In this document: positions 33,308 to 44,513 of the stretch, piece by piece
How positions within the stretch are numbered: position 1 is the first letter of the stretch
How the letters are laid out: the number at the start of each line of letters is the position of its first letter
DNA from: a virus
Taxonomy: Duplodnaviria > Heunggongvirae > Uroviricota > Caudoviricetes
IMG/VR virus record: IMGVR_UViG_2778261352_000001
Span: 1 to 64,000 of that record
DNA length: 64,000 nt
Reading direction: 5' to 3' (one strand)
Translations under genes and position numbers: made by a program
Notes under the pieces: model-generated
What the model was told of the DNA's origin: nothing
The model's database searches: none
The model's input: the letters and a program-made list of their open reading frames with translations, nothing else

Positions 33308-33725
33308 TTAACACTCAGATAATGGTTTTAAGTAAAGTGTACAGGATCGGCTCTGCCTTTACCTGTTTATGATTCTCGTCATAGAAACGCCAGCGACCGC
33401 GCGTGCGTTCTATTTTCTCTTCACCGCGCGATAATGACAGTTGACAACTATCACGATCAAACCCTTTTGCCCGCCAGTAACCACGGTTTTTCTCAAGCTC
33501 AAGATGAGTGGACACTTTAGCAGCTGAATATCCCATTTTTCACCTCTGATTGATTGGTGGTGCTAAGTGCGCTACGCGAAATCTGGAGCACTAACACTGC
33601 CAACATTTCGCAGATTTTACGTAGCGCAACCTTGATCAAATGATCAAGTGATCACTATTTGACCTGATAAGGTATTGAACTGTATGGATTTACAGGTAAA
33701 TTGATCATGTTCAATAACCCTTAAG

Positions 33726-33759
33726 ATAACTTCGTATAATGTATGCTATACGAAGTTAT
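33726..33759 (+). other. loxP: loxP recombination site
   Basis: exact ATAACTTCGTATA-ATGTATGC-TATACGAAGTTAT. Confidence 0.97.
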
Positions 33760-33802
33760 TAGGTCCGAAGAGGAGTTTACGTCCAGCTGCGCATAAAAAT
33801 CA

Positions 33803-36821: not shown

Positions 36822-38014
36822 TAATCATCATCCCCGTATAGCTTGCGGGTAACTTCTTCGTCTTCCTCCTCGTCTTCGTCCAGGTCTTGTTCCAGCCATG
36901 GGTCGTTTGATACACCTTCAGTATCAACATCTCCATAACCGCCTGTATCAACGATATCGGCGATTTCTTCCCTACGTTGCTCAATCCACAATGCAGCATC
37001 GGCGCGGCGGTTGGCGGCCCGTTCTCGCGCAACTTTGTCCAGATCTTCAAGAGAAGGGCCACCGACGGCAGTTTGCCTTTCCTCATCATCGGCATTTGTC
37101 TTAGGAGCACGCAGATCGGCTTTGATTTGCTCCAGCATCAGGGGCGGCACTTTCCCTCCATGCGCCTCGATGAATTCAGCCGCTTCCAGCACTGACCAGT
37201 TATTTTCACGCTTTCGTTCGTATGCCAGCTTAACAATGCCAGCTTGCCCCATAGATAAAGCGTGCTTTTCCGCCTCCCGGCTTTCTTTTCGATAGTTATT
37301 GCGGATGCTGTAAATGGTGTTGATCAGGCTGCTTATCTGCGCGGAACAGCTGTTTAGCATGCTCGCGATACGGTATTCAGGCGGAGTACCTTCATCATCG
37401 TCTTTTTGCTGATCGCGCATTTCCTGCACCAAGCGAATACACGTATCCCGGGCGTTCTCCAGCATAAGGAGATGAGAAAGAGACTTTTCCAGAAGAGTGG
37501 TTTCCAGAACATCAGCTCCGGAACGACGCAACATAGCGCGCGCGGCCTTCCGCGCTTCAACGTTATCTATCAGGTAATCGCCCGCTTCGAATTCAAAGCG
37601 TTCACCATCATCATCCAGGGTGTCGCGTTCCAGGCGATCACGTAAGGTCCGGTGGGCGCGGGTGATCACGTCATGATCATCTGAACGATCATTTATGCGC
37701 TTATTTTGGCGCTTCGCATTCCCGACTGCGGCACTGACAACGGCATTAACCCTTTGTTTTTCCGCTATTTCAGCCGCAATGTGATCACATGTATGTTGAT
37801 CATTAGAGTGATCAATGATCATGCTTTTTAGTGGCTTCCTGACTGGCTTATTTGGCTTGCGGCTGTCCGCTGTCCTGGTGTCTTCTTTGAAGGCACGGAG
37901 ATAACGACGTGCAGTATTAGGGTTAAGATTAAACTCGGCGGCATACTGTGCGATGGTGTAACCACCATCTCGCGCCAGGCGAGCAAAATTCTTCTTGTGA
38001 TCGTCCCAGGTCAC
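36821..38014 (-). CDS. pacA: terminase small/pac-recognition subunit PacA
   Basis: 397 aa, GTG start with AAGGAAG RBS, contains pac site. Confidence 0.9.
37636..37821. other. pac: pac packaging site (clustered TGATCA hexamers with Dam sites)
   Basis: two clusters of TGATCA/GATC (37636-37691 and 37782-37821) inside the 5' part of pacA. Confidence 0.65.
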
Positions 38015-38099
38015 TTATGCTTCCTTTCGTAAAAACTCTTTTTGACGCGAGGGTAACGAAAGTCACATGTCAAAAGGCCCGGAACGGGCAAGCAATCAA

Positions 38100-38552
38100 T
38101 CAGATACGTGCGGATGTGGCATTACCGTAATGACGGTGCTGACGGGCCACCTTATTGAAAAGTTGACGCGCCATTACCCAAGGCTGGTGCTCCCGGCGTT
38201 CCTTTTCGTCCTGCGTCATATAGAGTTCGTTCTGGAGTTTTTCATCAAACCGGCGCGGTGCGCGGCTGCGGCGAAAGAATTCAGGGTTCAGAGAGTGGAT
38301 CTGAAATCTACGTGGGCGTGTACTATCGTCAATCAAAACAGACGAATACTTAGACACAGCGATAGCCTTTAAGCGCAGATAAACGTCGCGCTTATCGACA
38401 TCCAGATGCGGGTATTCCTTTTCAAGGATTGCTGCGAGTTCTTTCGCTGATAGAAGAGATTTAGTGCGGATCATGTAATCCGCAATCTCATACGATGTTA
38501 TTCGTGAGTGATTTATTTCCATGAAGTGGCGTCCCTGCCAGTTAAGTAACAT
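38100..38552 (-). CDS. lpa: late promoter activator Lpa-like
   Basis: 150 aa upstream of pacA, preceded by C1 operator; synteny. Confidence 0.55.
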   Translation of the reverse strand: MLLNWQGRHFMEINHSRITSYEIADYMIRTKSLLSAKELAAILEKEYPHLDVDKRDVYLRLKAIAVSKYSSVLIDDSTRPRRFQIHSLNPEFFRRSRAPRRFDEKLQNELYMTQDEKERREHQPWVMARQLFNKVARQHRHYGNATSARI

Positions 38553-38622
38553 CCTGTCACCTACTGATTAGCCCATGTCAACTAATCAACGTGGAATATA
38601 ATACCCTCGATTAAAGAAATAG

Positions 38623-38639
38623 CAACACATTAGAGCAAT
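38623..38639 (-). promoter_or_regulatory. C1 repressor operator (lpa)
   Basis: reverse complement ATTGCTCTAATGTGTTG. Confidence 0.5.
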
Positions 38640-38640
38640 T

Positions 38641-39684
38641 TTATCTAACGCTCGACGAATGACTTGTGATAGCGCCGACTCCAAGCGCGTAATCAAAGAA
38701 CAATCGTTGATGCATCGCCAGCCTGCCGTGCGTTTTCTCCCAATTATCGCGGTCACGCTCAATATCACGCTGGCATGACTGGCACAGAGGAATTGCGTAA
38801 ATGTCATGCGCGCATAATCGACTATGACGAACGATATAAGGCGTAATGTGAGCGCCAGCTCCCGCAGCTCCACACCCACAGCATGGACGGGAAGCAACAA
38901 AGTCCATGTACTCAGGTAATTTTAGCGATTGCAGTTTTGGTATTTTGAAATGCGCCATGCCAGGGTCGGAGTCAACATCCACAGGGCATACTTTTGCTCG
39001 CATCGGCGCGGCGCGTTCTTCCATCATCTGAACATATGCTGTAGCGCGATCGTCATACGGGCGAATATCCGCCTCTTTCAGAGGCCCGCTATCCTGCGTT
39101 GCAGTCTTAATCTTATTTATTGATATACGGCAGACTTCTTCCGGCATCAGGTGCATCATGTCGCGCATGAAAGCCCACCAGCACAGTTCCTGAATACTTA
39201 AATCATGGCCATCTGAAAGCCCCATTTCCTGACGGGCGACATCCAGTATCCAGTTAACGCGATTATTATGCAGCGTTTCTTTCAGCTCATTAAAACCACG
39301 CATCCGGTAATGGTTATCGTGATGCCAGCACAACAACACCGCGCTATTGTCTCGTTCTGCGTGGACAATATGGTTGTCACACCAGCTACGATCTGCGGCC
39401 TGGCATTGTCCCTCTTTCCTGCGCAACCACGCCACCAGCGCGTCAATTCCACCAATACGGCGAAACAGTTCATCGCTGTTAAAAAACGGCTGCAACGCCT
39501 CATTTGTTGCCATGGTTTGCTCGGTAACAACGAGGCCGTCTTCCATGTGCTCGATTAACTCACGCGGCACCGGCTCCATAATAAATTTACGGCCAGCCTC
39601 CACCAGCTTTCTGACCTCCTGATCCACTTTGAACGTGGCGAGGCCAAGCTCTTTCTGTACAAAGGGAGTAATTACGGCTTTCAC
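38641..39684 (-). CDS. PdcB-like protein
   Basis: 347 aa downstream of doc; Cys-rich C-terminus; synteny. Confidence 0.45.
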
Positions 39685-39711
39685 ATCACACCTTTCATCA
39701 CTGATTGGGCT

Positions 39712-39891
39712 TTATCTGCTGCCCGGCATTCTCTGTTTAAGCACAACCATTTCCTGACGGCATAACACAGCAATAGCGGTCCTGGCACCAATTTGCTTAC
39801 CAACCAGGTATTGCTTTACCTTGCGGCGACTCACGCCATCAAGAAGCATCTTTAACGCTTCACGGGACAATTTGTTGTATTTACGTGCCAT
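39712..39891 (-). CDS. PdcA-like small basic protein
   Basis: 59 aa from ATG 39891 (track ORF begins further upstream and would overlap doc). Confidence 0.35.
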   Translation of the reverse strand: MARKYNKLSREALKMLLDGVSRRKVKQYLVGKQIGARTAIAVLCRQEMVVLKQRMPGSR

Positions 39892-39895
39892 TAAT

Positions 39896-40276
39896 CTACT
39901 CCGCGGAACCATACAATCTACGTAACGTGTCGGCGACAGAAGATACAGATATCTCTCCGGTCGCAGCCCCTACGGTAAGGTCTGCCAGTTCAGGTGAATC
40001 AAATACCTGCACCCCGTTACGGCGTAGAAATAACAGCGCACTGTTTAGCGCGGTACGCTTATTGGCATCATTGAATATATGCCCTCTCGCTGTAGCCACC
40101 AGGTAGGTGGCGGAGACTTCGAAAAGGTCGGTGATCTCTTCGTAGGCAACTCTGGCCTGAACTCTCCCGATAATGGCCTCTGCCCTACCCGGATCTGACA
40201 TTCCCGGCAGGCCGCCGTAGCGGTTTATATTCGCATCATGAAGCGCAATAAGTTCTTCCGGTGATATATGCCTCAT
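39896..40276 (-). CDS. doc: Doc toxin (Fic-fold kinase)
   Basis: 126 aa, [43 protein letters not shown]... matches Doc. Confidence 0.95.
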
Positions 40277-40497
40277 TATCGGTTAACCAGTTCCTTGTTG
40301 GTGGAGTCCAGGGTGTCAAACAGGGATGCAAATTCAGCATCCAGCGCCGCTTTTTTGTAGGCTTCGAAAGTAGCCTTGCTGACAATTACTGCTGGCTCAC
40401 GGCCTCTGCGGGTGATTTCAACCTCTTCCCCGGCTTCAACATTGTTGAGCACTTCAGAAAGGTTGCCGCGCGCGGTACGGAAGTTAATGGATTGCAT
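40276..40497 (-). CDS. phd: Phd antitoxin
   Basis: 73 aa, [73 protein letters not shown]. Confidence 0.9.
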
Positions 40498-40569
40498 AAA
40501 CACCTCGTGTACTCGTTATGTGTACACAATTATAAACCTCACAGGCATAAAGCACCAGCTCTTTGCAGC

Positions 40570-40959
40570 TTAAATAACCGGACAATCATCAAACTCCCCA
40601 CTTCGGGCATCATTGATGACATGAGTGATCACACCAAAAACAGCATTACTGCCCGTGCATCCATCGTCATCTACTGGTAATGCCTCTTTCTTCCCGGTGC
40701 TTAAATCCTCCAGGTGCTGGCGCGGATACTTTCGGTATCTCTTTATGCGATATTCACCCTCCATAGCGCACACAAGCAGAGAACCATCAACCGGAGTAAG
40801 CGAGGAATCAACCACCAGCAAAGCACCCTGCAATATTCCCTCACGGTGATGGCTATCAGCTGCCCGCATGAAGTAGGTTGCTGATGGATGCCTGATTAGT
40901 TGCTGATCAAGAGAAATTCGGCTTTCAACATAATCCGCCGCAGGAGAAGGGAAGCCCAT
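40570..40959 (-). CDS. humD: HumD (UmuD homologue, LexA-like S24 peptidase)
   Basis: 129 aa; UmuD-like C-terminal domain; LexA box upstream. Confidence 0.8.
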   Translation of the reverse strand: MGFPSPAADYVESRISLDQQLIRHPSATYFMRAADSHHREGILQGALLVVDSSLTPVDGSLLVCAMEGEYRIKRYRKYPRQHLEDLSTGKKEALPVDDDGCTGSNAVFGVITHVINDARSGEFDDCPVI

Positions 40960-40980
40960 AGCGTTTTCACCTCAACAATA

Positions 40981-40996
40981 CTGTTCATTTATACAG
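40981..40996. promoter_or_regulatory. LexA (SOS) box
   Basis: taCTGTTCATTTATACAGta matches CTG-N10-CAG, 22 bp upstream of humD ATG. Confidence 0.6.
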
Positions 40997-41133
40997 TATA
41001 CATTAAAGAGACACCTTTGGTGCAAACGCGTTACGTACATCAACCACCGCTGATGATTTTGTGCTCTTTGCTACTATTCATCACCAACGGATCAGCGTAA
41101 CCTCGTTGCCAATCAGTTAATAAGGAATTAGCT

Positions 41134-41718
41134 ATGCCTAATCGCATTCCTCTCGATCCTGTATTGCCCAAAAATTTTGACTGCACTCCTAACGAGAAAC
41201 GCTCTAAAACTCAGCTGGACGCCTGGTGGGACCATCCCTATGGGGTTACAGAACATGACGGGAAAATTGTTGTTTATTGTCTGAATGGTGGCGCGTGGGA
41301 CCGTCCATCCGTGCTTGGTTTGGCAAATAACTATGATGAAGCCTGTGAACTTGCCGAAAGACAGCAGGCTAGATGGGTGAAAACACGTTCTGAACCGACA
41401 TTCATGTTTTCAAAAGAACCGCCATTTATACTGGCGAGGATGCCGCAGCGACCGGATCATCAACAAGAAATTGTTGCTGAATTTTCCTCAAGGGATGAGA
41501 TGAATCTCTTCTCATTAAAGCAGGAAGAAAGGGATCGCGTCGAAGTGTCTCCAACTCTCGACCACAACCAGATGAACCTGGCCCAACTCGCCTGGTACAG
41601 CAAAGAATTAGAGATGTCTATTGCCCGGCTTGAAAACGAAAAAGCCGCTATCCAAGCCCAGCACGAAGTAGTTCTGAACCGGATTAGAGAAATGCAAAAC
41701 GATAACAGGGGATTTTGA
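41134..41718 (+). CDS. hypothetical protein
   Basis: 194 aa, ATG start, divergent from humD. Confidence 0.45.
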   Translation: MPNRIPLDPVLPKNFDCTPNEKRSKTQLDAWWDHPYGVTEHDGKIVVYCLNGGAWDRPSVLGLANNYDEACELAERQQARWVKTRSEPTFMFSKEPPFILARMPQRPDHQQEIVAEFSSRDEMNLFSLKQEERDRVEVSPTLDHNQMNLAQLAWYSKELEMSIARLENEKAAIQAQHEVVLNRIREMQNDNRGF

Positions 41719-42081
41719 ATGGCTAAAATCGAGTACCATCGCGATCGCGGTAATTACCTGGAAATATACGATCATGAATCTCTTAACGATATCAACGATG
41801 CGTTATATGAATACTGTGAAAAAATGAGCATCACAGATACACCTGATGCATTTGTCGAGCTACCGGTATATCTCCGCGACATCTATGCAATACGGACGCC
41901 GCCCGTATCGGTAATTCACATTGGCTATGTCCGCCTGTCCATCGAAGAAGATGAAGATCGTTATATCGTGCGCCACTATACATTGGACAGAAAAGAGCTT
42001 CCCAATGAATGGAACATGAGTAATTTCTACAACGGTGAATATGGCTTAAAACCCGCTAAGAATGGCGCGGGCATTGCGTAA
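41719..42081 (+). CDS. hypothetical protein
   Basis: 120 aa, ATG one nt after upstream stop. Confidence 0.45.
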   Translation: MAKIEYHRDRGNYLEIYDHESLNDINDALYEYCEKMSITDTPDAFVELPVYLRDIYAIRTPPVSVIHIGYVRLSIEEDEDRYIVRHYTLDRKELPNEWNMSNFYNGEYGLKPAKNGAGIA

Positions 42082-42092
42082 TAGCCTAACAA

Positions 42093-42332
42093 CTATTCTG
42101 TTTTCTGATATGCCGGATCGCTCCCTTTTGGCAACTGGAGGCTTAACTGCCTGTAGTGCCGTAGCCGTTCCATGAAATAGGCGCGCAGGTTTTCCGGTTG
42201 CTCACGGGCCACCTGCTCTGCAATCACCGGTATATTCAGTCGTTCTTTGTAAGCAACGCCGCTGGCGGCAAGGTCTACGTTCACCTTGTCTCGCTCTTCC
42301 TGGCTTTTAGCTGCAATATTGCAGTTGCTCAT
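42093..42332 (-). CDS. hot: Hot (homologue of DNA polymerase III theta subunit HolE)
   Basis: [43 protein letters not shown] closely resembles E. coli HolE. Confidence 0.8.
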
Positions 42333-42334
42333 GT

Positions 42335-42601
42335 TTAAAGCTCACATTTCCAGATGGTATTCTGAACACCCGAACCGGGAGCGAGATGGGGATTAGCGTT
42401 CGCGCTATGCTGATATACGGCTTTAGACTTCCCATATTGCTGACAGGCTTTATCTGCGGTTTTTTGCAAGCTATCAAGGCCATACCAACCATCTGACTGT
42501 ATGCTTACCTTTTCACCGTCGTTGTATTGCACCATTGCACACCCAGATATAGCCAGTATCGCGCCGACAATAACGCTTTTCCATAAAACTCTATACAACA
42601 T
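42335..42601 (-). CDS. lipoprotein (Plp-like)
   Basis: signal peptide with lipobox LAISGC; ATG 42601. Confidence 0.55.
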
Positions 42602-42646
42602 AGACAAAAATCCCCTCTGTGAATTGAGGGGATTTTAGCATGGTGA

Positions 42647-42934
42647 TCAGAGATCAGCTTTATGCAGAATTTTATCCACCAGCGATGTGATTTTTTCTGC
42701 CAGGTCATCATTACTTACCCAATCCTGGCGGGCAGCCAGAACGGGCGACAAAGTTAATATTAACTCTCGCCGTAATGATGCGTTCCGTGGTGCTAGTGGT
42801 GGTTTAAGCCCCTCGCTCCCTTGTATTTCTGGGGTATGCGGCTGATAGCCATTAATCATCCTTTTTTTCTCCATTTTCGGTGGGCGCGGACGCGGGAGAA
42901 TCATGATTCCTTTCTCTTCCTGCATACTGGGCAT
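42647..42934 (-). CDS. hypothetical protein
   Basis: 95-aa ORF, ATG start. Confidence 0.35.
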   Translation of the reverse strand: MPSMQEEKGIMILPRPRPPKMEKKRMINGYQPHTPEIQGSEGLKPPLAPRNASLRRELILTLSPVLAARQDWVSNDDLAEKITSLVDKILHKADL

Positions 42935-43209
42935 GTGTTCTCTGTGAAATATGGGAAACTATTATCCAGCTCATCTACCCACTGTTTATGGTCGAAGCAG
43001 AAAAATATCTCCCACGGCATTCCATATTCTTCCATCCATAGGCGGATCTGCATTTCTATTGGAATCGGCGGTATTGCAGACACCATATCAACAGGATAAC
43101 AGTTCAGACGACGTTCCAGTTCTTCTACTCTCTTCTGGAGATGAAATATCCGATCCAGATGCACACGCCGCTCCCGTGCCATTTTAAAATAAAGCTCGCC
43201 GGTCATCAT
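42901..43209 (-). CDS. hypothetical coiled-coil/Cys-motif protein (paralogue A)
   Basis: C-terminal WEIFFCFDHKQWVDELDNSFPYFTENTCPVCR shared with next gene. Confidence 0.45.
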   Translation of the reverse strand: MMTGELYFKMARERRVHLDRIFHLQKRVEELERRLNCYPVDMVSAIPPIPIEMQIRLWMEEYGMPWEIFFCFDHKQWVDELDNSFPYFTENTCPVCRKRKES

Positions 43210-43493
43210 TAACTCCTACATTCAGGGCAAGAGTTCCCTTCCGCAAAATAGGGGAAACTGCTATCAAGCTCATCACACCATCTGCGATGGTCGTAGCACC
43301 AAAACGCCTCCCACGGTGCACGGAAATACTTCATCCACCAGGACACTCGATCAGGTATATCTGCTGGTGGCAGCTCTTCTGGCAATAATTTGCCTGATAA
43401 TTCCCTTTCCGCCCGCGCCAGCATTCCTTTTAGACTCGCATTCTCTTTTTCAAGAATCTCTATGCGCGCCTGTAACTCAGCTTTCGTTGGCAT
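43209..43493 (-). CDS. hypothetical coiled-coil/Cys-motif protein (paralogue B)
   Basis: leucine-zipper-like N-terminus; C-terminal WEAFWCYDHRRWCDELDSSFPYFAEGNSCPECRS. Confidence 0.45.
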   Translation of the reverse strand: MPTKAELQARIEILEKENASLKGMLARAERELSGKLLPEELPPADIPDRVSWWMKYFRAPWEAFWCYDHRRWCDELDSSFPYFAEGNSCPECRS

Positions 43494-44157
43494 GGTCCGC
43501 CTCATGCTTTTCAGCCACCAGCGGCAATAAAGCCCTGGCCATCTTATGAACCAATAGTGCATCAATAATGCCAAGCGTATGCCCCGGCTTAATGTTTAAT
43601 GCCGCCTCAAGGTGACACCTTTCCAAGCCACTTTTCTCGGCTTGTTTATGATGATCTGGCGTAATAACGTCGCCCAAAACTCGGCTAATTCTTTCTCGTA
43701 ATTGCTGGGTGCCAGCACACTTGATCGCTGTATCGTGGAGACGGTTAACCAGTTCGCGATAAACATGCGGCTTAATGCGGATACGTTCACCGGTGACGCC
43801 CTTTCCTGGCGCTGGCACCGAACTATCCGGAATATCCGGATAGTTGCCAGCCTCGTAAGCTACCCGCAGCCAGTGCATGAATGTTTCAGTGGACACACAA
43901 CCACAGTCCACATCGATTTTTCCGCGTTGCTGTTCCAGCCACTGCTCAAAATTCAATCTACACGTATTACTTTCATGTTGCTCTTTTTGTCTCAAGGCCA
44001 GTACCTGTTGGGCCAGTTCCAGAACGATACCGGGTGACGCTAACCTCTCAAATTCCAATAAATAGTTTGTGTCAGGATGACAAGTAGCCTCGCCTGCAAA
44101 AAATACCAATTGCTGTAAGTATGCTGTCGTTAGAGTAGTCATTTCTTTTTGCGCCAT
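43477..44157 (-). CDS. hypothetical protein
   Basis: 226 aa, ATG start. Confidence 0.45.
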   Translation of the reverse strand: MAQKEMTTLTTAYLQQLVFFAGEATCHPDTNYLLEFERLASPGIVLELAQQVLALRQKEQHESNTCRLNFEQWLEQQRGKIDVDCGCVSTETFMHWLRVAYEAGNYPDIPDSSVPAPGKGVTGERIRIKPHVYRELVNRLHDTAIKCAGTQQLRERISRVLGDVITPDHHKQAEKSGLERCHLEAALNIKPGHTLGIIDALLVHKMARALLPLVAEKHEADHANES

Positions 44158-44513
44158 TTCTTTTCACATTCCTTAGTCCATTTTTCAATGTTCATTTTGG
44201 CAATATCAGTCATTCCGTCACCCAAGAAATACTTTTTCCGGTATGTCTTGCACTTAAACCACACTACAACAGCCACCAGCCAGAAAATAAAAGGCCATAC
44301 AGCAATACCAACGACAGCCGCGATAAAGCCCAATATCCATAAATGAAGCTCTCCAACTTCTGTTTCCGGCAATATTCTTAAAGAATTAAACAGCAGGCTG
44401 AACGAATGGTCGTATGCATTGGCAGTATAAGACATGCAATCCATATAATTAAAGTCATAGCCTGCGGCTGCCGCCCATAATGGGCGGTCAAGAAAATGTT
44501 TTAGTGTCATCAT
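44139..44513 (-). CDS. hypothetical membrane protein
   Basis: 124 aa, long hydrophobic stretch LWILGFIAAVVGIAVWPFIFWLVAVVVWF, Lys-rich tail; low GC. Confidence 0.45.
   Translation of the reverse strand: MMTLKHFLDRPLWAAAAGYDFNYMDCMSYTANAYDHSFSLLFNSLRILPETEVGELHLWILGFIAAVVGIAVWPFIFWLVAVVVWFKCKTYRKKYFLGDGMTDIAKMNIEKWTKECEKKWRKKK

Follow-up and report, generated by a model that had tools for sequence, protein, structure and literature searches.

The humD–lxr–upf93.6 region of a P1/P7-type phage-plasmid and the gene served by its LexA box

The region between humD and hot

Between the genes humD and hot of a P1-like phage-plasmid lie a LexA binding site (SOS box) and two small open reading frames (ORFs), and it is these features, together with the question of which gene the LexA site serves, that are considered here. 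The DNA concerned, hereafter the window, is a stretch of 64,000 nucleotides (nt), positions 1 to 64,000 of the Caudoviricetes record IMGVR_UViG_2778261352_000001 of IMG/VR, for which megablast against phages returns P7, SJ46 and P1 at 96–98% identity. The locus is best explained, with fair but by no means complete confidence, as the accessory corner around humD and lxr in a phage-plasmid of P1/P7 type, arranged as in P7. This degree of confidence attaches to the explanation as a whole, in which the locus is of P7 type, the box is the operator of humD, and lxr belongs to a separate unit with an accessory role.

The relationship to the two reference phages is close. P7 is collinear with the window over 38001–42063 at 97.9% nucleotide identity and P1 over 38001–41668 at 98%, after which P1 lacks 41669–42101, carries 65 base pairs (bp) in their place, and resumes at hot; in the humD region itself the identity to both phages is ~98%. 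The P7 record (AF503408) has the order humD, LexA site, upf94.2 and upf93.6 with the same box sequence, but there IS903 comes after upf93.6 and the stretch has no annotated hot, whereas in the window hot is the next gene; the two also differ in the final 18 nt of ORF2. P1 (AF234172 / NC_005856), with the order hot–lxr–humD, shares an identical LexA box, ~98% identity in humD and 96% in Lxr, but is without upf93.6, and its Lxr is a protein of 190 amino acids (aa) ending in ...REVQNG. The same order as that of the window, humD–lxr–ORF2–hot, is found at 97% identity in the complete IncY plasmid pRHB34-C14_2.

Both ORFs can be assigned to annotated genes. The product of ORF1 shares 181 of 189 residues (96%) with P1 Lxr and corresponds to Upf94.2 of P7; it matches phrog_6164, a family of unknown function, along its entire length (residues 1–194 of 194, E=7.7e-134), with the synteny between humD and hot matched as well. 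That of ORF2 is 93% identical to P7 Upf93.6 and matches phrog_5797, also of unknown function, over residues 1–117 (E=3.1e-76). Each is preceded by a ribosome-binding site, AAGGA 7 nt before the lxr ATG and GGGGA 6 nt before that of ORF2. Moreover, the ORF2 start codon abuts the lxr stop codon (TGA 41716–41718, giving TGAATG), and ORF2 is therefore probably co-transcribed and translationally coupled with lxr. The divergent intergenic region between humD and lxr measures 174 bp, and hot converges on ORF2 across a gap of 11 bp, forming the right boundary of the cassette (Table 1).

An earlier, sequence-only reading of the region had described two co-oriented genes of 194 and 120 aa, of unknown function and some 140 bp from the box, where P1 was said to have a single gene between humD and hot. 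The sizes and the arrangement hold, the measured distance being 135 nt, and the P1 record confirms that its single gene is lxr. The two ORFs do match known genes of P1 and P7, and in this respect the description needs correcting; these genes are annotated yet functionally uncharacterised, and the words 'unknown function' stand. Indeed, the box, humD, lxr and upf93.6 are all already known, the P1 and P7 records having listed them for some two decades.

Among plasmids in PLSDB, the humD-plus-box segment has 657 matches, lxr 213 and ORF2 135. It follows from these counts that the lxr cassette is optional, present or absent independently of humD and the box, and that, of its two forms, the one with both genes is commoner than the P1 form with lxr alone.

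Table 1. Features of the humD–hot region, in window coordinates
Feature	Position	Strand	Remarks
humD	40570..40959	-	129 aa, pre-truncated UmuD'-type accessory subunit of translesion polymerase V
Likely humD ribosome-binding site, GAGGTG	40968..40973	-	8 nt before ATG; from reading of the sequence
LexA operator (SOS box), TACTGTTCATTTATACAGTA	40979..40998	.	unique in window; annotated in P1 and P7
Candidate humD promoter	40995..41025	-	putative -10 TATACT 41000-40995, -35 TTGCAC 41025-41020, 19-nt spacer
Candidate lxr promoter	41050..41077	+	putative -35 CTGATG, 16-nt spacer, extended -10 TGcTACTAT (hexamer 41072-41077)
ORF1 = lxr, P7 allele (Upf94.2)	41134..41718	+	194 aa; phrog_6164
ORF2 = upf93.6 orthologue	41719..42081	+	120 aa; phrog_5797
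hot, DNA polymerase III theta homologue	42093..42332	-	Pfam DNA_pol3_theta E=1.4e-33

The LexA box and the genes on either side

The box, TACTGTTCATTTATACAGTA, differs from the 20-nt LexA consensus TACTGTATATATATACAGTA at three positions (17/20 match), with the CTGT-N8-ACAG core and the TA flanks intact. It is the sole site in the window with three or fewer mismatches to the consensus, and 100 shuffles gave no such match. When the criterion is loosened to the core CTGT-N8-ACAG, three sites are found where 0.57 would be expected. The description of a near-consensus SOS box ahead of humD is accordingly borne out, and the distance of 22 bp given for it is correct to within a base or two, 19 nt separating the 20-mer from the humD ATG, or 21 nt when the count is made from the CTG core. 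In the GenBank records of both P1 and P7 a LexA protein_bind feature is placed on exactly this 20-mer, at the same position, and the P7 record gives its role as 'regulation of humD expression'. The site, annotated in these records as bound by LexA, is very probably the operator of humD.

The product of the gene so controlled would be ready for immediate use. HumD matches the 'HumD family' model NF051876 of NCBIfam along its whole length (219.3 bits against a cutoff of 120; residues 1–129 of 129), and its match to the Pfam family Peptidase_S24 begins at residue 1, the S24 domain having no cleavable N-terminal tail. In the literature HumD is given as a pre-activated UmuD' (PMC7092418), and a similar note is carried by the P1 record. 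In a rough promoter scan the box overlaps the best -10 candidate for humD, TATACT, a consensus match. Since the box would thus cover the likely -10 together with the start of transcription, LexA is expected to keep humD switched off until the DNA is damaged. The sequence of events would then be that host LexA, bound to the 20-bp palindrome, occludes the humD promoter in the lysogen; that DNA damage leads to LexA self-cleavage and hence to humD transcription; and that HumD, already in the UmuD' form and needing no RecA-mediated processing, joins and activates host UmuC at once.

That the box belongs with humD is indicated where the gene order differs. The box is present in P1, P7, RCS47, pRHB34-C14_2 and all P1-type viral loci with a recovered upstream region, with variation confined to its central spacer, and in these viral loci it lies ~20 nt from the humD ATG, whatever genes stand to the right. 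In elements of the RCS47 type, which have neither lxr nor ORF2 and in which humD adjoins hot, the box is kept as TACTGTTTATTCATACAGTA together with ~40 bp beyond it, and the homology reaches ~41037, spanning the candidate humD promoter. In rearranged relatives the box is found ~20 nt upstream of small minus-strand genes, either humD-like or of the family phrog_2100, on the side away from lxr. Thus the humD-like genes of loci L137 and L141 both converge on lxr from downstream, each with a box on its own upstream (far) side; that of L141, whose box has two mismatches, is 1.2 kb beyond lxr–ORF2. In L139 and L140 it is a phrog_2100 gene, again downstream of lxr–ORF2, that has the box ahead of it. 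In L026 the phrog_2100 gene is divergent to lxr, and a one-mismatch box stands 21 nt from its ATG, within a promoter-like TTGACA-17-CATACT site; when the intergenic regions of L026 and the window are aligned, no homology is found apart from the box.

Nor do the more distant lxr genes bring a box with them. No box lies within ~450 nt upstream of lxr in L003, L008, L019, L020, L024 or L027, and neither a gamma-type nor an alpha-type LexA motif occurs within 400 nt upstream of the Lxr-family gene at any of 56 genome loci of other bacteria. Ahead of the long-form lxr genes of L024/L027 and L137–L139 stands a conserved leader of ~75 nt, which has no box. Taken as a set of sequence comparisons, these observations suggest that the name 'LexA-regulated function' given to Lxr reflects proximity only, the operator belonging to humD.

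For lxr itself, a separate start of transcription can be proposed. The promoter scan used a rough sigma-70 position weight matrix, with hexamer frequencies from the literature, and gave one best candidate per strand, for humD and for lxr, each within the top 0.04% of window positions and not significant taken alone. The -10 candidate of lxr is ~75 bp away from the LexA box, and its extended -10 recurs unchanged in another two P1-type loci, L135 and L136. A standard promoter scan detected no consensus-grade promoter in the humD/lxr intergenic region, and both candidates are best treated as leads rather than evidence. On these leads, lxr–upf93.6 would most likely be transcribed from its own promoter at ~41050–41077, such that LexA control would not be required, and the two genes may form a separately transcribed accessory unit.

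Three points weigh against so clean a separation. The authors of the P1 record locate the box 'in the regulatory region of lxr and humD'; in two lineages, P1/P7 and L026, the divergent intergenic region upstream of lxr does contain a strong box; and the promoter candidates on both strands are consensus matches, of which ~0.8 would be expected by chance per 200 bp at that score. The first two points favour a bidirectional form of SOS control, in which one LexA dimer at 40979–40998 would repress both humD and an overlapping lxr promoter, such that Lxr and Upf93.6 would be SOS-induced. The P1 record does assign the site to both genes, the divergent region is short and lacks a consensus-grade promoter by the standard scan, and in the otherwise unrelated L026 a near-perfect box is once more found in the divergent region upstream of an lxr–ORF2 pair. 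Moreover, the long-form enterobacterial loci L024, L026, L137 and L139–L141 have a LexA-like box (1–5 mismatches) within ~2.2 kb of lxr, although L027 and L138 have none over that distance. Set against this form of control, 135 nt separate the box from the lxr ATG, and of the plus-strand promoters overlapping the box the best has a poor score, 3.6 as compared with 7.3 for the distal candidate. The box also persists in elements without lxr (RCS47), it follows humD or phrog_2100 when the gene order changes, and the wider Lxr family is without LexA boxes. Direct LexA control of lxr–upf93.6, and with it the bidirectional arrangement, is possible but on balance somewhat unlikely. The suggestion in the sequence-only reading that the gene pair is SOS-induced is correspondingly weakened, by the retention of the box without lxr, by its association with humD or phrog_2100, by the lack of a box ahead of all 56 Lxr-family genes of other bacteria, and by the distance of ~75 bp to the lxr promoter candidate.

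The LexA-repressed Pol V operons umuDC, mucAB and impCAB, which are found on plasmids or chromosomes, offer a comparison. As in these operons, an SOS box stands at what is probably the promoter of a mobile-element gene of UmuD type; the differences are that humD has no umuC of its own and already encodes the truncated UmuD', and that lxr is divergent to humD and outside its operon. The impCAB operon does have an adjacent small accessory gene (PMC7092418). Lxr is not homologous to ImpC/DinI, a Pfam scan that included the DinI family having given no such match.

Several further observations concern the control elements. A second CTGT-N8-ACAG site, AACTGTATGGATTTACAGGT at 33678–33697, lies ~30 bp from loxP (33727–33760) and is the counterpart of the other annotated P1 LexA site (record positions 46–65), which overlaps the promoter P2coi; by this match, both P1 LexA sites are conserved in this element. 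The P1 record predicts a humD promoter within lxr, ~470 nt upstream of humD (L002 3438–3464, equivalent to ~41437–41463 of the window), a prediction which is doubtful because RCS47-type elements keep humD and the box without that sequence. The family phrog_2100 (~83 aa; L026 4018–4312, L139 ~6362–6615, L140 ~6344–6597) has a LexA box ~15–20 nt before its ATG with one (L026), four (L139) or three (L140) mismatches. The L026 box is enclosed by a perfect palindrome of 36 bp. The family would seem to be an SOS gene of phage-plasmids, as yet unstudied, with lxr as a recurrent neighbour. The leader ..tctcacgttatcagaNagccttttcagggtattctgtga.. recurs before long-form lxr (L024/L027, L137, L138, L139) in differing contexts and may be a promoter or regulatory element.

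The Lxr family and its possible function

Lxr belongs to a family that extends far beyond P1 and P7. A word-indexed search for homologues returned 104 clusters, and an exhaustive profile search 478 representatives at E≤1e-3, with 258 at E≤1e-10. The full length of ~190 aa is limited to enterobacterial phage-plasmid members, and most of the family are stand-alone proteins of ~133 aa from alpha-, beta- and gamma-proteobacteria that are 50–60% identical over residues 1 to ~125. In the family alignment (A1) the residues C49, L50, N51, G52, G53, D56, R57, A70, A74, Q78, R85 and P107 are invariant, and the motifs CLNGGxWDR and PQRPD recur. Many members (P0123, P0127, P0129, P0133 and P0154) have an N-terminal extension of ~55 aa with the motif KREAK..HS.ALE....GF.SWH.L, and some have unannotated C- or N-terminal regions of 150–230 aa. 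Among ten longer members, nine of them multi-domain proteins of 300–408 aa and one of 238 aa with an N-terminal extension, no Pfam family scored above its gathering threshold. A 133-aa gene in L026, considered as a paralogue of Lxr, proved to be unrelated.

The AlphaFold2 model of Lxr, with a predicted local distance difference test score (pLDDT) of 87.8, has an extended conserved N-terminal peptide and two beta3-alpha units, such that residues 1 to ~130 are predicted to form a conserved alpha/beta domain. In P1-lineage Lxr the model continues into a helix of ~44 residues at 149–192, which is probably a coiled coil and through which these proteins may oligomerise. The model has no convincing fold match. 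Pfam and NCBIfam gave nothing significant for Lxr or ORF2, the PADLOC defence profiles no match at E≤1 to either, and profile searches of PDB sequences no relatives of either, in keeping with the earlier remark that neither protein has recognisable motifs. The literature search found nothing that characterises Lxr, Upf94.2 or Upf93.6, one P1 RNA-seq paper making no mention of lxr or humD. In a CRISPR interference (CRISPRi) screen, Lxr was found to be non-essential for P1 lytic growth (PMC10695390).

What function can be proposed comes from gene neighbourhood. The Lxr domain is found on numerous conjugative plasmids, integrative elements and phage-plasmids of proteobacteria. On the conjugative elements of alpha-proteobacteria the Lxr-family gene stands just downstream of traG, the gene for the coupling protein (TraG/VirD4), in 20 of 56 species-level loci, at a median distance of ~0.7 kb, with SNase, methyltransferase, WGR, DUF4326 and DUF736 genes as neighbours and ArdC within 3 kb. 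In Klebsiella phage-plasmids of ~110 kb (L008–L012, 6001–7763) a short Lxr gene adjoins a HEPN/Toprim gene within a replication and recombination module; this module encodes RecA, a gp32-like single-stranded DNA-binding protein (SSB), a 5'-3' exonuclease and a Pol III alpha subunit. A sphingomonad element (L054/L055/L057/L058; for example L057 1064–3583) has a 128-aa gene, an Lxr-family gene and then a convergent umuD–umuC operon with a gap of 31 bp, and in an enterobacterial Ter-plasmid (L029–L031) umuDC is 4 kb from an Lxr-family gene.

Together with humD and hot in P1, these neighbours hint at a loose theme of DNA damage and replication. The association is suggestive only, because conjugative plasmids often carry umuDC-like genes and because the P1-like cases share ancestry; indeed, part of the recurrent proximity of humD and lxr in P1-like elements is the shared ancestry of one variable region. 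With the further caveat that the functional inference draws on gene neighbourhood and nothing else, the preferred reading, a tentative one, makes Lxr an accessory protein, not essential to the phage, that would bind some conserved part of the host's DNA-damage or replication machinery. The conserved domain may be the part that binds this repair or replication component, a theme that would be shared with HumD, which mimics UmuD', and Hot, which mimics theta.

More specific proposals are all of low probability. It is unlikely, although it would be the most far-reaching outcome, that the Lxr N-terminal domain (CLNGGxWDR / PQRPD) defines a widely mobile family which modulates the host DNA-damage response or translesion synthesis, with RecA filaments, UmuC/UmuD' or the replisome as target and with Upf93.6 as a lineage-specific partner. 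If true, such a modulator would explain the occurrence of Lxr beside humD and hot in P1, beside umuDC in the sphingomonad and enterobacterial plasmids, and in transfer or establishment regions.

No better placed is an anti-defence or establishment role, the former already raised in the sequence-only reading and with the evidence pointing neither way, in which Lxr, with or without Upf93.6, would shield incoming mobile-element DNA in the manner of ArdA, ArdC and PsiB. The genes of the leading regions of conjugative plasmids, which include ArdC, PsiB and SSB (Samuel et al. 2024, PMC11541004), offer the nearest comparison, since the short-form Lxr genes of alpha-proteobacterial conjugative elements are found beside traG (20 loci), ArdC, nuclease and methyltransferase genes, WGR and DUF736. 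The Klebsiella phage-plasmids, with Lxr next to HEPN/Toprim, would fit such a role, as would the P1-like elements, in which the pap-to-lxr stretch is a known variable accessory region (PMC6906374; PMC9603915). This likeness is one of gene neighbourhood, and Lxr is without homology to ArdC, PsiB or SSB. More generally, neither Lxr nor Upf93.6 has sequence or fold similarity to known anti-defence proteins, and an identity of 50–60% across classes would be unusual for arms-race proteins that face variable defence systems.

A sequence- or structure-specific DNA-binding regulator, with the coiled coil as a dimerisation element, is similarly improbable. It is implied by the label 'DNA-binding protein' which NCBI attaches to Lxr, for which scans of Pfam and NCBIfam found no supporting model.

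Upf93.6 and the variable region beyond hot

The ORF2 family is narrow as compared with that of Lxr, comprising 16 clusters, all of them enterobacterial. In L026, L027 and L139–L141, which are diverged loci, ORF2 comes immediately after an lxr homologue; in P1 and L024/L025, lxr has no ORF2 behind it. In distant pairs of lxr and ORF2, Lxr ends in ...REVQNG, as it does in P1; for this reason the lxr–ORF2 pair is probably ancestral and ORF2 probably lost from P1, the ...EMQNDNRGF ending with its abutting TGAATG then being a P7-type derivative. On a Salmonella ccdAB plasmid the ORF2 homologue follows unrelated genes of 81 and 320 aa, the 320-aa gene having been considered as a divergent Lxr and rejected. 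Modelling of ORF2 gave a poor structure (pLDDT 61), and neither fold nor sequence searches were informative.

That the two ORFs might be chance frames or decaying pseudogenes, as the lack of domain matches and the poor ORF2 model could be taken to mean, is almost certainly wrong, given intact homologues at 53–68% amino-acid identity with saturated synonymous sites and a non-synonymous divergence of 0.2–0.3, a ratio of non-synonymous to synonymous rates (dN/dS) of 0.09–0.39 where measurable, good ribosome-binding sites, full-length matches to PHROG families and hundreds of plasmid copies. Both are genuine genes under purifying selection.

Beyond the cassette the window departs further from P1. 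The nucleotide identity of hot to P1 hot is only 87.7%, in flanks of ~98%, and the genes to the right of hot (42335–44500) differ from the upfO/N/M and pmgV genes of P1, which fits the published variable region RD-5. Among them are a 90-aa protein with a lipoprotein-like signal (ISGC) and, at 42901–43209 (-) and 43209–43574 (-), two small tandem paralogues that are 52% identical across their C-terminal 54 aa. The motif common to this pair, PWE.F.C.DH..W.DELD.SFPYF...CP.CR, is Cys-rich and possibly zinc-binding, and homologues of the pair sit between ORF2 and the humD-like gene in L141.

As a discovery the humD–lxr–upf93.6 arrangement carries little weight, being an ordinary one that is found in more than 100 sequenced plasmids. 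Of wider interest is the N-terminal domain of Lxr, which represents a well-conserved, unannotated protein family carried by proteobacterial mobile elements and, as such, a reasonable target where the manipulation of host DNA repair by plasmids and phages is concerned.

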